Positions 1,988-14,378 of a DNA stretch of 14,378 nucleotides are shown here, one piece after another (the stretch's first letter is position 1; every line of letters starts with the position of its first letter). This DNA is from a virus. Location: the UHGV virus genome UHGV-2151295, one strand, 5' to 3'. The notes beneath the pieces were generated by a model. The model did not search any database. It was not told the DNA's origin and worked only from the letters and a program-made list of their open reading frames with translations. A program made the translations under genes and the position numbers.

Positions 1988-2685
1988 ACACTTGCTCCTT
2001 TCAGTCCGAACTTAGCTTTGATTTCTGCGATCTTCGCCAGAGCCTGTGCACGATTTAGAGGTCTACCGCCCATGACAGGAAGTTGTTTTACTGGTTCAGG
2101 GATCGCCTCACCACGGTTAATTCTCGCAGTCATATGGACAAGCTCATCTGCGGCCTTACGGCGTAATTCCGCATCAGTAAGCGCATTGGCCCGCATGTTC
2201 TGATACAGGTTGGTAATCAGCCAGTAGTGCGCGTTTGATTTCCACGGATAAGACTCCGCATCCGGATACAGGCCTCGCTTCCGGCAATACTCGTAAACCA
2301 TATCAACCAGCTCGCTGACGTTTGGCAGTCCGGCGGTAACGGATGCTTCTTCCCGGCACCATGCAACAAACTGCCCGGGTGATGGCAGAAATGGTCGATT
2401 CTGCCGACGGGCTACGCGCATTCCTGCGTTAACCTGTTCCATCGTGGTGATCCCGTTTTCCCGGAAAGCCAGCACCCACTGGCGGCGGATTTCGTTCAGT
2501 TCGTTCTGGTCCCGGTTAGCTAGGCTCGCCGGGAAAGTTGCCAGTAACTGGCTGAACACACCATTGATGATCTGCGCTACCTGTTGTACCTGCGGCTTTT
2601 CGTCGTACTGTTCCGGCATGTTGTTGGCGATCCGACGCATCTGCTCACGGTCAAAGTTAACCATCTGTGCGGCGATGTTTTTCAT
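1984..2685 (-). CDS. P: Replication protein P (DnaB helicase loader), 233 aa
   Basis: Translation MKNIAAQMVNFDREQMRRIANNMPEQYDEKPQVQQVAQIINGVF... recognised as near-identical to lambda P; 4-nt overlap with O stop. Confidence 0.95.
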   Translation of the reverse strand: MKNIAAQMVNFDREQMRRIANNMPEQYDEKPQVQQVAQIINGVFSQLLATFPASLANRDQNELNEIRRQWVLAFRENGITTMEQVNAGMRVARRQNRPFLPSPGQFVAWCREEASVTAGLPNVSELVDMVYEYCRKRGLYPDAESYPWKSNAHYWLITNLYQNMRANALTDAELRRKAADELVHMTARINRGEAIPEPVKQLPVMGGRPLNRAQALAKIAEIKAKFGLKGASV

Positions 2686-3581
2686 AAATCCACCCCGTAA
2701 ATCCAGTCAGTGTTTGTCAGGTCGAGTTTTGGTTTGCTGGCTGTCACGCCTGCCTGTTGCTTGTTACGGTTGATTTCGAGCTGGGTCCACTTGTCGCGGA
2801 GTTTGGCCGGACTCAGCACGTTACCGGACCAGAAGTTGTCCTGGCAGGCCCAGCGGAAAAGCACACACATATCGCGGTGGTTACGTCCGTCACGTTCACG
2901 CATCAGGCGGATATCGTTAGCCCACCCAGCAAAATTCGGTTTTCTGGCTGATGGCGCGATGGTCTTCACCATGTCAAACATCCACTCTGCGGCGGTCAGG
3001 TCTTCTGCTGTTCCCCACTTGCTGCCGCTCTGAATTGCAGCATCCGGTTTAACCACAGAAAGATCGTTTTCTGGCTGGTAAGAGGATTCGCCAGAATTCT
3101 CGGACGAATAATCTTTTCTTTTTTCTTTTGTAATAGTGTCTTTTGTGTCCCCCTGTTTTGAGGGATAGCAATCCCCCAATTTGAGGGATGTTTTATCCCT
3201 CGTTTTAGGGGATTTTCCCTCGTTTTGAGGGATACACCATTCTGAGATGTTTTTATTTGGTCCAAACATGCCGCCTTGCTGCTTGATAATATTCATTCTG
3301 ACGAGTTCTAACTTGGCTTCATTGCACCGTTTGACAGGTAACTTTGTAATCTCGCTAAGTTGAGAATCGGTGATTCTGTCCATTGGTTTATTCCACCCAT
3401 AGGTTTTACGCAGAATGGCAAGCAGCACTTTAAACTGTCGCTTGGTCAGATCTGCGCCCGAATAAGCCTCAAGCAGCATATTTGATAGTCTGGCGTAACC
3501 ATCATCGAGATCTGCCACATTACGCTCCTGTCCGGCAAAGTTACCTCTGCCGAAGTTGAGTATTTTTGCTGTATTTGTCAT
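2682..3581 (-). CDS. O: Replication initiator protein O, 299 aa
   Basis: Translation MTNTAKILNFGRGNFAGQERNVADLDDGYARLSNMLLEAYSGADLTKRQFKVLLAIL... recognised as lambda O; contains the ori iterons internally. Confidence 0.95.
   Translation of the reverse strand: MTNTAKILNFGRGNFAGQERNVADLDDGYARLSNMLLEAYSGADLTKRQFKVLLAILRKTYGWNKPMDRITDSQLSEITKLPVKRCNEAKLELVRMNIIKQQGGMFGPNKNISEWCIPQNEGKSPKTRDKTSLKLGDCYPSKQGDTKDTITKEKRKDYSSENSGESSYQPENDLSVVKPDAAIQSGSKWGTAEDLTAAEWMFDMVKTIAPSARKPNFAGWANDIRLMRERDGRNHRDMCVLFRWACQDNFWSGNVLSPAKLRDKWTQLEINRNKQQAGVTASKPKLDLTNTDWIYGVDL
3090..3240. repeat. ori-lambda: four about 18-bp O-binding iterons (about 3155..3236) plus adjacent AT-rich unwinding region (about 3090..3150)
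   Basis: Seen directly: tandem copies of ATCCCTCAAAAC/TCCCTCGTTTTAGGGGA-type inverted-repeat iterons (tccccctgttttgaggga, atcccccaatttgaggga, atccctcgttttagggga, ttccctcgttttgaggga), preceded by an A/T-rich tract inside the O coding sequence. Confidence 0.85.
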
Positions 3582-4323: not shown

Positions 4324-5040
<717 letters not shown>

Positions 5041-5071
5041 TTGTTTTATTTTTCACGTAATAGGATGATTT

Positions 5072-5833
5072 ATGACACAGTTTCAACTTGCATTAATCGC
5101 TAGAGAAGTTGATGGAGAAGTCATCCATCTTCGCACCAAAGACGGATACATCAATGCCACCGCGATGTGCAAGTCTGCGGGGAAGCTACTTGCTGACTAT
5201 ACACGACTAAAAACAACACAAGATTTTTTTGATGAATTATCACGCGATATGGGGATTCCCATATCGGAGTTAATTCAATCATTTAAAGGCGGAAGAGCAG
5301 AGAATCAAGGGACTTGGGTTCATCCAGACATCGCAATTAATTTAGCTCAGTGGCTATCTCCAAAATTTGCAGTGCAAGTATCGAGATGGGTGCGTGAGTG
5401 GATGTCAGGTGAAAGAGCGCCTGCCGAACTCCCTATCCACCTTAAGCGGTATATGACAAACCGAGGCAGAGTTCCTCATACGCACTTTTCTATGCTTAAT
5501 GAACTGACGTTTAACTTGGTTGCGCCACTTGAACAGGCCGGATATACGCTGCCAGAAAAAATGGTCCCTGATATTTCAGAGGGTAGGGTTTTCTCGCAAT
5601 GGCTCCGTGACAACCGGGGGGTTGAGCCGAAGACATTCCCAACATATAACCATGAGTACCCAGATGGCCGGACATTCCCGGTACGTCTATACCCAAACGA
5701 ATATCTTGCAGATTTCAAACAACACTTCAACGAAGTGTGGCTGCCTCAGTACGCTCCTAAATATTTTGCTGAACGAGACCAAAGGGCATTGACGTTGATT
5801 GAGAAAATCATGCTACCTGACCTTGATTCCTAA
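5072..5833 (+). CDS. KilA-N domain protein, 253 aa, occupying the rexA/rexB position downstream of cI; candidate BstA-like abortive-infection/exclusion protein
   Basis: N-terminal about 110 aa carry the KilA-N signature (DGYINATAMCKSAGKLLADYTRLKTTQDF...ENQGTWVHPDIAINLAQWLSPKFAVQVSRWV). C-terminal about 140 aa have no fold I recognise. Same strand as cI, 31 bp downstream, followed by a strong terminator; no rexA or rexB is present. Confidence 0.8.
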   Translation: MTQFQLALIAREVDGEVIHLRTKDGYINATAMCKSAGKLLADYTRLKTTQDFFDELSRDMGIPISELIQSFKGGRAENQGTWVHPDIAINLAQWLSPKFAVQVSRWVREWMSGERAPAELPIHLKRYMTNRGRVPHTHFSMLNELTFNLVAPLEQAGYTLPEKMVPDISEGRVFSQWLRDNRGVEPKTFPTYNHEYPDGRTFPVRLYPNEYLADFKQHFNEVWLPQYAPKYFAERDQRALTLIEKIMLPDLDS

Positions 5834-5841
5834 ATGTTATT

Positions 5842-5867
5842 CCCGGCCACAGAGCCGGGTTTTCTTT
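5842..5867 (+). terminator. Rho-independent terminator ending the cI operon (timm-equivalent)
   Basis: CCCGGC(cacaga)GCCGGG hairpin followed by TTTTCTTT, 9 bp after the stop of the KilA-N gene. Confidence 0.6.
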
Positions 5868-6024
5868 GCCTCACGATCCCCCTCACCCAAGAACACATAA
5901 CCAATTGTATTTATTTGGAAATTAATAGATACAACTCACTAAACATCGCAATTCAGATCTCTCGATCACCTTCCCAATCCACACAACCCTGCAAAAAATA
6001 AATCTATATAAAAAACATACAGAT

Positions 6025-6090
6025 AACCATCTGCGGTGATAAATTATCTCTGGCGGTGTTGACATAAATACCACTGGCGGTGATACTAAG
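6025..6090 (+). promoter_or_regulatory. Left operator oL3 (6025..6041), oL2 (6045..6061), oL1 (6069..6085) and promoter pL (-35 TTGACA 6059..6064, -10 GATACT 6082..6087)
   Basis: Seen directly: ...atctgcggtgataaattatctctggcggtgttgacataaataccactggcggtgatact, the classic lambda pL/oL arrangement; oL1 taccactggcggtgata is identical to lambda oL1 as I recall it. Confidence 0.9.
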
Positions 6091-6157: not shown

Positions 6158-6267
6158 AGCATTCAAAGCAGAAGGCTTTGAGTAGCGCGAAATGCAGCTG
6201 CAAGACAGCAACCGTGGAGATAAGCATCACGGCGCGTTACTCAAAGCTAACTGGCAGGAGAATCCAG

Positions 6268-6591
6268 ATGGATGCACAAACACGCCGCCGCGAACGTCGC
6301 GCAGAGAAACAGGCTCAATGGAAAGCAGCAAATCCCCTGTTGGTTGGGGTAAGCGCAAAACCAGTTAACCGCCCTATTCTCTCGCTGAATCGCAAACCGA
6401 AATCACGAGTAGAAAGCGCACTAAATCCGATAGACCTTACAGTGCTGGCTGAATACCACGAACAGATTGAAAGCAACCTGCAACGTATTGAGCGCAAGAA
6501 TCAGCGCACATGGTACAGCAAGCCTGGCGAACGCGGCATAACATGCAGTGGACGCCAGAAAATTAAGGGAAAATCGATTCCTCTTACCTAG
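6268..6591 (+). CDS. N: Antiterminator N, 107 aa
   Basis: Translation from the internal ATG of ORF 6178..6591: MDAQTRRRERRAEKQAQWKAANPLLVGVSAKPVNRPILSLNRKPKSRVESALNPIDLTVLAEYH... recognised as lambda N (Arg-rich boxB-binding motif at the N-terminus). The upstream ORF extension begins at a TTG and is rejected. Confidence 0.9.
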   Translation: MDAQTRRRERRAEKQAQWKAANPLLVGVSAKPVNRPILSLNRKPKSRVESALNPIDLTVLAEYHEQIESNLQRIERKNQRTWYSKPGERGITCSGRQKIKGKSIPLT

Positions 6592-7146
6592 TTACTTAGA
6601 TATTGGCCTTGGCTTTATCTCAATATTATATGGATCATAGCTGGCAACTAATTCAGTCCAGTAAATATCCTCAATAGGGAATAATATATGCTTCCCGTTC
6701 CATCGGGAAAAAGTTTTGTTCAACACACCAAGCTCAATCAACTCACTAATGTATGGGAATTGTTTTGATGTAACCACATACTTCCTGCCTTCATTAAGGG
6801 CTGCGCACAAAACCATAGATTGCTCTTCTGTAAGGTTTTGAATTACTGATCGCACTTTATCGTTTTGCATCTTAATGCGTTTTCTTAGCTTAAATCGCTT
6901 ATATCTGGCGCTGGCAATAGCTGATAATCGATGCACATTAATTGCTAGCGAAAATGCAAGAGCAAAGACGAAAACATGCCACACATGAGGAATACCGATT
7001 CTCTCATTAACATATTCAGGCCAGTTATCTGGGCTTAAAAGCAGAAGTCCAACCCAGATAACGATCATATACATGGTTCTCTCCAGAGGTTCATTACTGA
7101 ACACTCGTCCGAGAATAACGAGTGGATCCATTTCTATACTCATCAA
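6592..7146 (-). CDS. sieB: Superinfection exclusion protein SieB, 184 aa (membrane protein)
   Basis: Translation MMSIEMDPLVILGRVFSNEPLERTMYMIVIWVGLLLLSPDNWPEYVNERIG... recognised as lambda SieB; convergent with N as in lambda. Confidence 0.9.
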   Translation of the reverse strand: MMSIEMDPLVILGRVFSNEPLERTMYMIVIWVGLLLLSPDNWPEYVNERIGIPHVWHVFVFALAFSLAINVHRLSAIASARYKRFKLRKRIKMQNDKVRSVIQNLTEEQSMVLCAALNEGRKYVVTSKQFPYISELIELGVLNKTFSRWNGKHILFPIEDIYWTELVASYDPYNIEIKPRPISK

Positions 7147-11558: not shown

Positions 11559-11880
11559 GGCCTGTCAGTTTCTCAAGATATCCAGACCTACCGCTACCAA
11601 CTGGATACGAACAGGCCGCCTACAGGCAACACGCAAAGACCCCACTAAACCAAAATCTCCTTACCTCACAACGCGACAAGCCTGCATTGCGGCGCTTCAG
11701 TCTCCGCTGCATACTATCAAGGTGAGCGCGGGTGATGGCATAACAGAGGAAAGAAAATGTCACTCTTCCGCAGAGGTGAAATATGGTACGCCAGTTTCAC
11801 ATTGCCGAACGGTAAAAGATTTAAACAGTCTCTTGGAACAAAGGACAAAAGGCAGGCGACAGAACTCCATGACAAGCTAA
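11530..11880 (+). CDS. xis: Excisionase Xis, P22-type, 116 aa
   Basis: Internal Met of ORF 11500..11880: [50 protein letters not shown]... recognised as near-identical to P22 Xis; 3' end overlaps the int start by about 124 nt. Confidence 0.85.
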
Positions 11881-12920
11881 AGGCTGAAGCATGGCGGGTC
11901 AGCAAACTTGGTGAAATACCTGATATAACGTTCGAGGAAGCGTGTGTCAGGTGGCTTGAAGAGAAAGCACATAAAAAATCACTGGACGATGACAAAAGCC
12001 GGATCGGATTCTGGCTTCAACATTTCGCAGGAATGCAACTAAGAGACATTACTGAATCAAAAATTTATTCAGCAATGCAGAAAATGACGAACCGGCGTCA
12101 TGAGGAAAACTGGAAACTCAGGGCAGAAGCATGCAGAAAAAAAGGGAAACCTGTTCCAGAATACACGCCAAAACCAGCGTCCGTTGCAACGAAGGCTACG
12201 CATCTTTCATTTATAAAGGCTCTGCTAAGAGCCGCAGAGCGTGAATGGAAAATGCTGGATAAGGCACCAATTATTAAAGTGCCTCAACCAAAGAATAAAC
12301 GGATCCGCTGGCTGGAGCCCCATGAAGCACAAAGGCTGATTGATGAATGTCCGGAGCCATTAAAGTCTGTTGTTGAATTTGCACTGGCAACAGGCTTAAG
12401 ACGCTCGAACATCATCAACCTTGAATGGCAACAAATAGATATGCAGCGCCGGGTGGCATGGATAAACCCGGAAGAGAGTAAATCAAACCGCGCAATTGGC
12501 GTTGCGCTGAATGATACTGCATGTCGCGTATTGAAAAAACAAATCGGGAATCATCACCGTTGGGTATTTGTGTACAAGGAAAGCTGTACCAAACCAGACG
12601 GAACGAAAGCGCCAACAGTAAGGAAGATGCGGTATGACGCAAACACAGCCTGGAAAGCGGCGCTGAGACGGGCTGGTATTGATGATTTCAGATTTCACGA
12701 CTTGAGACACACTTGGGCAAGTTGGCTGGTTCAAGCCGGAGTCCCGTTGTCAGTGTTACAGGAAATGGGAGGCTGGGAGTCTATCGAAATGGTTCGTCGA
12801 TATGCTCACCTTGCACCTAATCACCTTACCGAACACGCACGGCAAATAGACTCGATCCTAAACCCATCGGTCCCAAATTTGTCCCAGTCAAAAAATAAGG
12901 AAGGTACTAATGATGTGTAA
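11757..12920 (+). CDS. int: Tyrosine integrase, P22-type (thrW-targeting), 387 aa
   Basis: Translation [53 protein letters not shown]... recognised as P22 Int; conserved R...HxxR...Y catalytic box ([13 protein letters not shown]...MVRRYAHL) present. Stop 4 bp from the tRNA 3' end. Confidence 0.95.
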
Positions 12921-13124: not shown

Positions 13125-14378
13125 TTACGCACGAATGGTGTAATCACCAATGCCGATCCACTTGTAAGTGGTCAGTGCTTCCAGCCCCATTGGGCCACGT
13201 GCGTGCAGTTTTTGTGTGCTTACCGCCACTTCCGCACCCAGTCCAAACTGGCCGCCGTCGGTAAAACGCGTAGAGGCGTTAACGTAAACAGCGGACGAAT
13301 CCACTTCGTTAACAAAACGCTGGGCGTTGCGCATATCGCGGGTCAGGATCGCATCGGAGTGTTGCGTGCCGTGTTCACGAATATGGGCGATGGCATCGTC
13401 AAGATCGCTGACGATTTTGACGTTCAAATCTAATGACAGAAACTCATCGTCATACTCTTCGGCTTTAACCGCCACCACCTTCGCGGGGCCTGCCTGCAAC
13501 TGTGTCAGCGCAGCTGCATCTGCGTGTAATGTCACGCCGCTTTCCGCCATTTGTTTGCTTAATACGGGCAGGAAGCTATCGGCGATGTTTTTATTCACCA
13601 GCAACGTTTCTACCGTATTACATGTGCTCGGACGCTGAGTTTTGGCGTTGACGATCACTTTTAATGCTTCAGCGATCTCTGCACTTTCATCAACGTAAAT
13701 ATGGCATACGCCTATACCACCTGTGATCACCGGGATCGTCGACTGTTCGCGGCACAGTTTATGCAAACCAGCGCCACCACGCGGGATCAGCATGTCGATG
13801 TATTTATCCATACGCAGCATTTCACTGACCAGCGCACGGTCAGGATTATCAATCGCCTGCACGGCACCCGCCGGTAAGCCGCAGGATTTCAGGGCGTCCT
13901 GAATCACCGCCACCGTTGCAGCGTTAGTGCGACACGTTTCTTTGCCACCGCGCAGGATCACCGCATTACCGGTTTTCAGGCACAGCGAAGCGACATCAAC
14001 CGTCACGTTCGGGCGCGCTTCATAAATCACGCCAATAACCCCCAGCGGTACGCGACGACGCTCAAGACGCAGGCCGCTGTCCAGTACGCCGCCATCGATT
14101 ACCTGCCCCACCGGATCGGCGAGGTTGCACACCTGACGTACATCGTCGGCAATGCCTTTCAGCCGTGCGGGCGTCAGTGCCAGACGGTCAAGCATCGCTT
14201 CGCTAAGGCCATTGGCTCGCGCGTCAGCAACATCCTGGGCGTTAGCGTTGAGGATGATTTCGCTTTGTGCTTCCAGTTCATCGGCGATTTTTTCCAGCAC
14301 GCGATTTTTTTCGCGGCTGGAGAGTTGCGCTAATTTATACGAGGCTTGCTTCGCGGCAATGCCCATTTGTTCCAGCAT
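13125..14378 (-). CDS. proA: Gamma-glutamyl phosphate reductase ProA, 417 aa, start codon at the window edge
   Basis: Translation [66 protein letters not shown]... recognised as enterobacterial ProA; the proA-thrW adjacency matches the E. coli chromosome. Confidence 0.95.

Follow-up and report, generated by a model that had tools for sequence, protein, structure and literature searches.

Which gene has taken the place of rexA and rexB behind the lambda-type repressor of the virus genome UHGV-2151295, and what would spare its carrier phage from it? The stretch of DNA analyzed here, referred to as the window, is 14,378 nucleotides (nt) long and contains a lambda-type early region in the reverse orientation of the lambda map. 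An earlier note, made from the sequence alone, had proposed that the open reading frame (ORF) following cI encodes a BstA-like abortive-infection protein. As judged from homology, this ORF is a divergent short form of the BstA prophage defense family, and its KilA-N coding region contains a 22-base-pair (bp) palindrome that is under selection at the level of the nucleic acid. Taken as a gene, it is unremarkable, one more member of an established family in an established slot, and its novelty as a variant comes from the short architecture and chiefly from the covarying palindrome. The explanation that appears reasonably probable is that of a short-form BstA defense gene, co-transcribed with cI in place of rexAB, whose palindrome is a DNA site bound by the gene's own product. 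The slot and its cargo are composed as follows, with lengths of proteins given in amino acids (aa).

4327 to 5040, plus strand: cI repressor gene (lambda immunity), opening the lysogenic transcription unit, recognized by its ORF, its DNA identity to lambda and its protein identity.
5042 to 5841, plus strand: 800-bp cassette in place of rexA-rexB, made up of a 30-nt leader, the ORF and 8 nt past its stop.
5062 to 5065, plus strand: Shine-Dalgarno AGGA, 6 nt 5′ of the ATG; AGGAT is kept in repressor-adjacent alleles.
5072 to 5833, plus strand: short-form bstA-like gene, 253 aa plus stop, ATG start; RefSeq WP_000191544.1, "KilA-N domain-containing protein".
5108 to 5407, plus strand: region coding the canonical KilA-N domain (residues 13-112), matched by PF04383; its model matches Mbp1/APSES DNA-binding domains.
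5245 to 5266, no strand assigned: 22-bp palindrome CGATATGGGGATTCCCATATCG, 10 of 11 pairs; candidate cis-acting DNA or RNA element with synonymous constraint and compensatory covariation.
5429 to 5782, plus strand: region coding the BstA C-terminal domain (residues 120-237), matched by the PADLOC BstA model, with PF26567 (BstA_C) in homologues.
5842 to 5869, plus strand: intrinsic terminator closing the cI operon, stem CCCGGC/GCCGGG and T run, common to lambda and other cassette variants.
6059 to 6087, plus strand: pL promoter, TTGACA-17-GATACT, at the far edge of the slot.

The replacement of rexAB is exact. The cI protein is 100% identical to RefSeq WP_001274755.1, and in pairwise comparison the DNA is 98.7% identical to lambda as far as base 5041, in agreement with the earlier identification of the repressor as lambda cI. 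Because lambda homology stops at 5041 and is back at 5842, the intervening 5042-5841 is an exact swap for the 1401-bp rexA-rexB segment of lambda, whose absence had likewise been stated. The single 253-aa ORF lies on the same strand, exactly 31 nt (5041-5071) past the cI stop, as described before, and its own stop lies 8 nt before the terminator, in which a stem of six G-C pairs (5842-5859) is followed by TTTTCTTT. Correctly placed by the earlier note between the ORF and oL/pL, this terminator is part of the flank shared with lambda, where it directly follows rexB, and not of the inserted cassette. Between cI and the ORF, the plus strand showed no site resembling a promoter or a terminator, so that co-transcription with cI, like that of rexAB, is the natural reading, and the ORF is presumably transcribed from pRM in the lysogen.

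RexA and RexB constitute a lysogen-expressed abortive-infection exclusion system (noted also in PMC8585504), and the ORF occupies the identical position in the same transcription unit (cI, cargo, terminator, oL/pL). It has, however, no sequence relationship to them: lambda encodes two proteins, a sensor and a membrane channel, whereas one soluble two-domain protein is encoded here. A diverged RexA or RexB homologue, an outcome that the earlier note had allowed for, is not what the slot holds, no Rex family being among the Pfam, PADLOC, PHROG and NCBIfam matches of the protein. That the slot is a hotspot had also been stated and is in keeping with the literature, in which the interval between cI and N is common to bstA and rexAB and is called a hotspot, Degnan et al. 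2007 being cited for this (Owen et al. 2021, PMC8585504). According to the same study, bstA genes often, though not universally, lie downstream of the prophage repressor and presumably share its promoter.

What kind of protein, then, does the cassette encode? Pfam PF04383 matches residues 13-112 with an expectation value (E) of 8.2e-27 and 93.6 bits (cut-off 23.8), in line with the KilA-N signature previously noticed, and this match is clearer than in BstA-BTP1, the protein of Salmonella prophage BTP1, which has no Pfam match at all. The C-terminal half, which had been reported as matching nothing recognizable, turned out to be the BstA C-terminal domain. Indeed, the PADLOC BstA model aligns residues 120-237 with profile positions 149-271 (E 2.5e-20), BLASTP aligns residues 133-251 with residues 171-302 of BstA-BTP1 (29% identity, E 5e-15), and hhalign of a 36-sequence profile against BstA-BTP1 returns a probability of 97.8%. 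At full length, residues 1-252 match phrog_6287, "BstA abortive infection system, replication inhibitor" (E 1.8e-82), to which BstA-BTP1 also belongs (E 2e-150); the alignment runs over profile positions 6-301 of 304, so that about 50 profile positions are missing. Homologues at 56-87% identity carry the precomputed Pfam pair PF04383 and PF26567 (BstA_C), and it is through this annotation of homologues that BstA_C was seen, the Pfam copy used for the window protein being one without the PF26567 model. NCBIfam has no model for the protein. No KilA-C, ANT or Bro C-terminal domain was found, KilA-N being the sole Pfam match and the C-half matching BstA models. The BstA-like identity put forward earlier thus stands at the level of homology, and the ORF is under strong purifying selection, with a ratio of nonsynonymous to synonymous divergence (dN/dS) of about 0.03.

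The predicted structure consists of two confident domains, with a predicted local distance difference test (pLDDT) score of 88 for the whole protein and 91 for the C-domain. The N-domain model matches the DNA-binding domains of yeast Mbp1 and of PCG2, which belong with the KilA-N/APSES group (PF04383), at Foldseek probabilities of 1.00 and 0.98, while by sequence the relationship to Mbp1 is weak (phmmer E 0.04 against solved structures, among which weak Mbp1 matches alone were obtained).

Comparison with the tested BstA proteins shows how far this family resemblance goes. BstA-BTP1 is laid out in the same way, with a KilA-N-type domain at the N-terminus followed by a BstA C-domain (about residues 156-307) homologous to that of the window protein, and its gene is found between the prophage repressor, which it follows directly, and N, in the orientation of the repressor. 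It is 307 aa long, as against 253 aa in the window protein, which is thus some 50 residues shorter, and its N-domain cannot be aligned pairwise with the canonical KilA-N domain found here; the C-domain hallmark motifs VPDIS-G, H-x-YPD and YP-E are nevertheless common to both. Short homologues, and others whose match is confined to the C-terminal region, also appear in Owen et al. 2021 (PMC8585504). The BstA-Ec type (Escherichia coli NCTC10963; E. coli O178:H19 2012C-4431, WP_000026554.1) is closer in its surroundings, with the same slot, flanks and terminator, and in 2012C-4431 the cI protein in front is 100% identical to that of the window. In one prophage of this type (L019, NZ_CP024289.1 380500-386500), where the long bstA occupies 2336-3241 on the minus strand between N and cI, homology to the window ends at 5040/5041 and resumes at 5842, the same breakpoints as in lambda. 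BstA-Ec is an experimentally shown defense protein with its own cognate aba (PMC8585504). It differs from the window protein in being a long form of 301 aa, 42% identical to BstA-BTP1 over its full length, and in sharing only 22% C-domain identity with the window protein (E 3e-5); its leader measures 86 nt instead of 31 nt. One immunity backbone therefore holds rexAB, a long bstA or a short bstA as alternative cassettes, precisely exchanged between cI and the terminator. The earlier note had conveyed more novelty than the arrangement has: the position in the rexAB slot holds, but placement behind a lambda-type cI is not new, since an identical-cI prophage already has the tested BstA-Ec type there. 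What the window adds to the BstA carriers is a lambda-immunity prophage that many E. coli genomes contain.

Of more value than the identification of the gene, which is routine, is the palindrome. The 22-mer CGATATGGGGATTCCCATATCG starts 174 nt into the ORF and spans the third base of codon 58 and codons 59-65 (D-M-G-I-P-I-S), and no further copy is found in the window within 3 mismatches. Across five alleles compared in a sliding window, synonymous divergence (pS) is 0.32-0.42 at codons 51-80 versus about 0.85 elsewhere. Symmetry, counted in 85 alleles taken from the genomes of species and from further loci, is bimodal: 8-11 of the 11 pairs are formed in 49/85 alleles, drawn from many phyla, with 21 perfect, and 0-7 pairs in the other 36/85, which are close to the chance value of about 3 of 11. 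The core of the perfect version of the 22-mer is GGGAATTCCC; CGAAACGGGAATTCCCGTTTCG, coding E-T-G-I-P-V-S, and CGATATCGGAATTCCGATATCG, coding D-I..I-S, are arm variants of the 22-mer; other symmetric alleles are CGTTATGGGAATTCCCATAACG, coding V-M..I-T, CGATGCCGGAATTCCGGCATCG, coding D-A..A-S, GTCTGCGGGAATTCCCGCAGAC, coding S-A..A-D, and, in viral contigs, GGAAACGGGATATCCCGTTTCC, in which Pro is changed to Ser.

Several measures show that the two arms change together. Among the 49 symmetric alleles, 93.9% of cells are paired, a percentage inflated by the choice of alleles with at least 8 pairs, versus 78.2% in shuffles, none of the 500 shuffles being as high; 60 cells are changed on both sides where 13.9 are expected, the covariation score is 0.394 versus 0.127, and slid controls are 28-48% paired. 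The bimodality and the perfect 22-mers do not result from this selection of alleles, because a single sequence reaches 8 of 11 pairs or more by chance with a probability of about 0.001. Random synonymous recoding of each allele leaves 7.0 pairs, versus 10.1 observed. The codon of Pro63 is CCC in 35/35 alleles in which codon 60 ends in G and CCG in 14/14 in which it ends in C; its third base thus tracks that of codon 60, and therefore selection is on the nucleic acid, with the protein sequence dragged along. Some of the compensatory changes alter amino acids, and the element is a clean example of nucleic-acid selection over-riding the amino-acid sequence of a protein. In the structure model, the palindrome-coded segment consists of a helix end and a turn (helix 47-60, coil 61-63), and residues 57-63 face a gap in Mbp1, which suggests that the segment is a permissive part of the fold. 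Literature searches for the palindrome sequence and for KilA-N palindromes returned nothing relevant and no such KilA-N binding site, and as far as these searches reach the element appears to be a new finding.

What might such an element do? BstA proteins cause abortive infection by blocking phage DNA replication, and a cognate DNA element on the carrier phage relieves this block (Owen et al. 2021, PMC8585504). By analogy with these tested proteins, the short form would be expected to have a defense or abortive-infection phenotype: made constitutively from the maintenance promoter in the lysogen, it would engage the replicating DNA of a superinfecting phage through its KilA-N domain, while the BstA_C domain would block phage DNA replication, so that the infection is aborted and the cell lost. 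Domains of the KilA-N/APSES group are DNA-binding, and dyad symmetry is what a dimer would fit. The palindrome is most likely a double-stranded DNA site for a dimer of the protein's own KilA-N domain, a site bound by the protein itself being favored because the palindrome is tied to KilA-N and not to BstA_C and combines a constant core with variable arms. Such a site could act as an aba-equivalent recognition tag by which the protein is titrated or silenced during replication of the carrier phage; alternatively, or also, it could be an autoregulatory operator. Binding of the protein to this candidate site, and any immunity role of the site, are thus proposed from the pattern of sequence variation. 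As supporting context, some relatives of the gene adjoin an MmeI-type restriction-modification system or an Abi_C gene.

A number of observations weigh against this reading, and several of them concern the form of the proposed self tag. The element aba-BTP1 is a 63-bp stretch, of which 29 nt precede the gene and 34 nt lie in it; it needs its terminal CCCGCC repeats, acts as DNA and is effective at high copy (PMC8585504). Like the palindrome, it is a short element within the bstA locus that overlaps the coding sequence and varies between alleles, so that the palindrome could be cognate-specific as well. It is nevertheless built differently: direct repeats (CCCGCC at -28 and +29) flank the start codon at a spacing of 57 bp, in place of a 22-bp dyad well inside the ORF, and the palindrome, unlike aba-BTP1, also occurs in KilA-N genes without BstA_C. 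The window gene has no CCCGCC-type repeats across its ATG, CCCGCC being absent from the whole window and the locus showing no similarity to aba-BTP1; direct repeats of at least 5 nt spanning the ATG at 40-75 nt spacing are also lacking, there being fewer than in shuffles. The long BstA genes (BTP1, Ec type), in turn, have no such palindrome, and one short-form subclade, the "A-Q-T-G-L-P-E-Q" clade, lacks it too, including the aceK-linked Stenotrophomonas alleles and an MmeI-linked Enterobacterales allele. The palindrome is kept next to transposases and in chromosomal settings, where it has no obvious use for lytic self-immunity. On the side of the protein, the PADLOC BstA model is covered over 42% of its length only, by the C-half alone, and the tested BstA proteins are 22-29% identical to the ORF, in the C-domain only. 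For the C-domain, neither solved structures nor viral models contain a relative, and the fold of BstA_C therefore gives no basis for assigning a biochemical activity. Finally, an RNA hairpin would account for the covariation of the stem as well as a DNA site does.

A BTP1-style aba at the window gene, which the earlier note had anticipated in the 5′ part of the ORF, is thus not evident, and the conserved element that is present there is of a different kind. A start-codon element of the BTP1 type was also sought among 6-mer and 5-mer direct repeats and near-repeats at 25-100 nt around the ATG, and none was found. The 31-nt leader is common to 96-99% identical alleles behind other repressors and partly to Proteus and Rouxiella alleles; AGGAT and a T-rich run alone persist in distant leaders, and therefore no claim beyond the ribosome site is made for it. 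In the BstA-Ec type, an ATCCCT direct repeat at -34/+24 of the ATG is reminiscent of aba-BTP1, its 58-bp spacing mirroring that of the CCCGCC repeats, and the region of this repeat in L019 is a possible location of the BstA-Ec aba.

The explanation that comes next, though unlikely, keeps the gene as a BstA-family defense protein and takes the palindrome for a hairpin in the mRNA, with a 9-bp stem and a 4-nt loop, through which the output of a potentially toxic protein would be controlled, be it at translation, by pausing of ribosomes or by the stability of the transcript. The 9-bp stem is an independent prediction of RNAalifold, 7 of its 9 pairs being compensated, the hairpin of the window reaches -20.8 kcal/mol (z = -4.2), and pair 10-13, just inside the stem, is G-T (G-U in RNA) in 9-10 alleles. 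Control of expression would also still be useful in the non-phage contexts next to transposases. The symmetry, however, continues through the center of the element, where GGA-ATT changes together to GGT-ATA and one allele has a GATATC core, which a loop does not need, and arm mismatches are A-A or C-A for the most part and not G-U. Identical copies occur in non-coding DNA of unrelated phages and next to hok/sok, one copy (in contig L118) is extended to a 30-bp palindrome, and no Rfam family corresponds to the sequence, none being found in 5000-5900 of the window. An outer helix of the window RNA, pairing 5230-5239 with 5271-5281, was considered and rejected, as it is not conserved in the alignment.

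It is distinctly less probable that the gene serves phage defense in a manner other than that of BstA-BTP1, without abortive infection or without a cognate immunity element, its canonical KilA-N domain providing a different trigger or target and the palindrome serving as an autoregulatory operator only or in some other role. The N-terminal divergence and the missing profile positions described above (253 aa laid on PHROG positions 6-301) speak for such a change of function, as do the existence of a palindrome-free subclade and the fact that most relatives outside the Enterobacterales do not lie beside a repressor. The hallmark C-domain motifs shared with BstA-BTP1 speak for a common mode of action, together with the slot and the cI shared with the BstA-Ec type. 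Furthermore, tested BstA proteins are only about 40% identical to one another and yet behave alike (Owen et al. 2021, PMC8585504).

The weakest explanation, that of a KilA-N regulator, antirepressor, host-killing protein or selfish passenger in a permissive slot, can draw on a match of the KilA-N region alone to PHROG 129 ("transcriptional regulator"), on RefSeq and phage records that name relatives DNA-binding or regulator proteins, and on alleles that adjoin IS1595-type and other transposases or lie in the nin region beside hokD, but it is very improbable, given that a lysogen would defeat itself by transcribing an antirepressor or killer together with cI, that the C-domain is BstA_C and not KilA-C or ANT, that the strongest full-length match is the BstA PHROG, and that the slot is the classic one for exclusion genes (rexAB, bstA).

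If the palindrome is a DNA site bound by the protein, where else does it occur? The exact 20-mer GATATGGGAATTCCCATATC is present in at least 120 IMG/VR contigs. Among the matches listed, it lies within full-length relatives of the window protein in 16 contigs, at the same place in KilA-N proteins with non-matching C-termini (identity down to 42-48%) in 10, and outside any relative of the window protein in 94; of these last, again among the matches listed, 78 represent one site family adjoining hok/sok in E. coli lambdoid prophages. Its perfect stand-alone copy CGATATGGGAATTCCCATATCG (L104 2659-2680) lies about 47 nt from hok/sok and, in our own reading, 12 nt past the stop of a hydrophobic ORF of about 34 aa on the other strand. 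The surrounding 201-nt hok-side segment is found in 672/5,426 E. coli genomes, a count of the segment in which the presence of the palindrome was not checked copy by copy. Because 10 of 14 flanking bases match as well, the hok-side site could be a remnant of a nin-region KilA-N allele; it could also be an independent site. The remaining stand-alone contexts are mutually unrelated.

A wider proposal, which we regard as tentative and rather doubtful, is that a large clade of KilA-N genes encodes, within the region of the domain, the dyad bound by that same domain, which in the short-form BstA genes would serve as cognate self tag, the stand-alone copies being captured decoys. If true, the arms would vary for allele-specific recognition, dragging residues 59-60 and 64-65 along, and stand-alone copies such as those beside hok/sok would be captured immunity decoys and hence an anti-defense device. 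Palindrome-bearing unique proteins make up 41/45 in viral contigs versus 49/85 in species genomes, a predominance that fits a role tied to replicating elements and is suggestive only, being confounded by the over-sampling of E. coli and by the choice of query. To our knowledge, aba has been mapped in one case only. The 22 bp of the present site have been delimited by evolution, which has also provided natural variants of the arms, and the site offers a testable handle on BstA self-recognition and on KilA-N targets, and is open to direct tests of protein binding, of allele specificity and of the neutralization of defense by free copies in other phages.

Some individual copies deserve separate mention. 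The extended 30-bp palindrome of L118 lies around position 4929, and one contig (L102) carries both a window-type gene and the hok-side copy, 5.6 kb apart. In a GC-rich contig (L165 13856-13913), two different arm variants, separated by 36 bp, are both read in frame within a 435-aa ORF, and a KilA-N gene in L196 (3239-3302) has a second, imperfect copy 42 bp from the first. The sequence AAAAACGGGAATTCCCGTTTTT in L103-type contigs looks like an ordinary bidirectional terminator and was not counted as a copy of the palindrome.

How widely, then, is the short form itself distributed? An identical gene is carried by phage PhiR5_2, which is consistent with a gene that does not block its own carrier, the host given in the record being by itself no proof of plaque growth; no paper on this phage was found in the literature search. 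Of 5,426 complete E. coli genomes, 139 have a copy that extends over 80% or more of the query. Behind other repressors, the short form occurs in E. coli H6, an Enterobacter metagenome-assembled genome and a Proteus phage. The H6 copy (L008 3030-3791), 96% identical and preceded by a different, XRE-type repressor, is annotated as two ORFs and is probably a frameshifted pseudogene; homology to the window starts there 27 nt inside the end of the repressor gene. The allele WP_000200358.1 (257 aa, 86% protein identity; L005 3001-3774 and L007 2968-3741) has no repressor adjoining it and is located, with its own upstream sequence, in the nin region of other lambdoid prophages of E. coli, where hokD is its neighbor.

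Relatives of 250 aa that are 53-60% identical to the E. coli protein occur in Verrucomicrobiota, Planctomycetota, Bacteroidota, Spirochaetia, Nitrospirota, Armatimonadota, Candidate Phyla Radiation (CPR) bacteria and others (L022-L101). Such conservation across phyla is unusual and would imply both wide horizontal transfer and a very constrained function. Outside the Enterobacterales, adjacency to a repressor is the exception in the short-form family, Peptidase_S24 being found in only 2/74 upstream neighbors, and the neighbors of relatives include an MmeI-type restriction-modification gene, an Abi_C gene, aceK and, at ten loci, transposases. In these ten species genomes from several phyla, a transposase-like gene lies immediately upstream, on the same strand in 9/10; the loci form one cluster of six (L062, L068, L083, L091, L093, L100) and a second of four (L067, L070, L073, L078), and Pfam assigns six IS1595-type and four IS1-type transposases among the upstream neighbors. 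This arrangement suggests that the gene travels as a passenger of insertion sequences.

Outside the slot, two further elements of the early region were placed.

4279 to 4251, minus strand: pR promoter.
6178 to 6591, plus strand: N, inside an ORF.

Directly after N, the minus-strand ORF 6592-7146 corresponds to a gene of E. coli D5 named "superinfection exclusion B family protein" in RefSeq, and if it matches that name the region would carry a second exclusion gene. At the right end, an integrase-sized ORF (11757-12920, plus strand) is followed by a chromosomal gene (13125-14378, minus strand), and because matching genomes annotate a tyrosine recombinase and proA at these ORFs, the window represents a prophage integrated beside proA.

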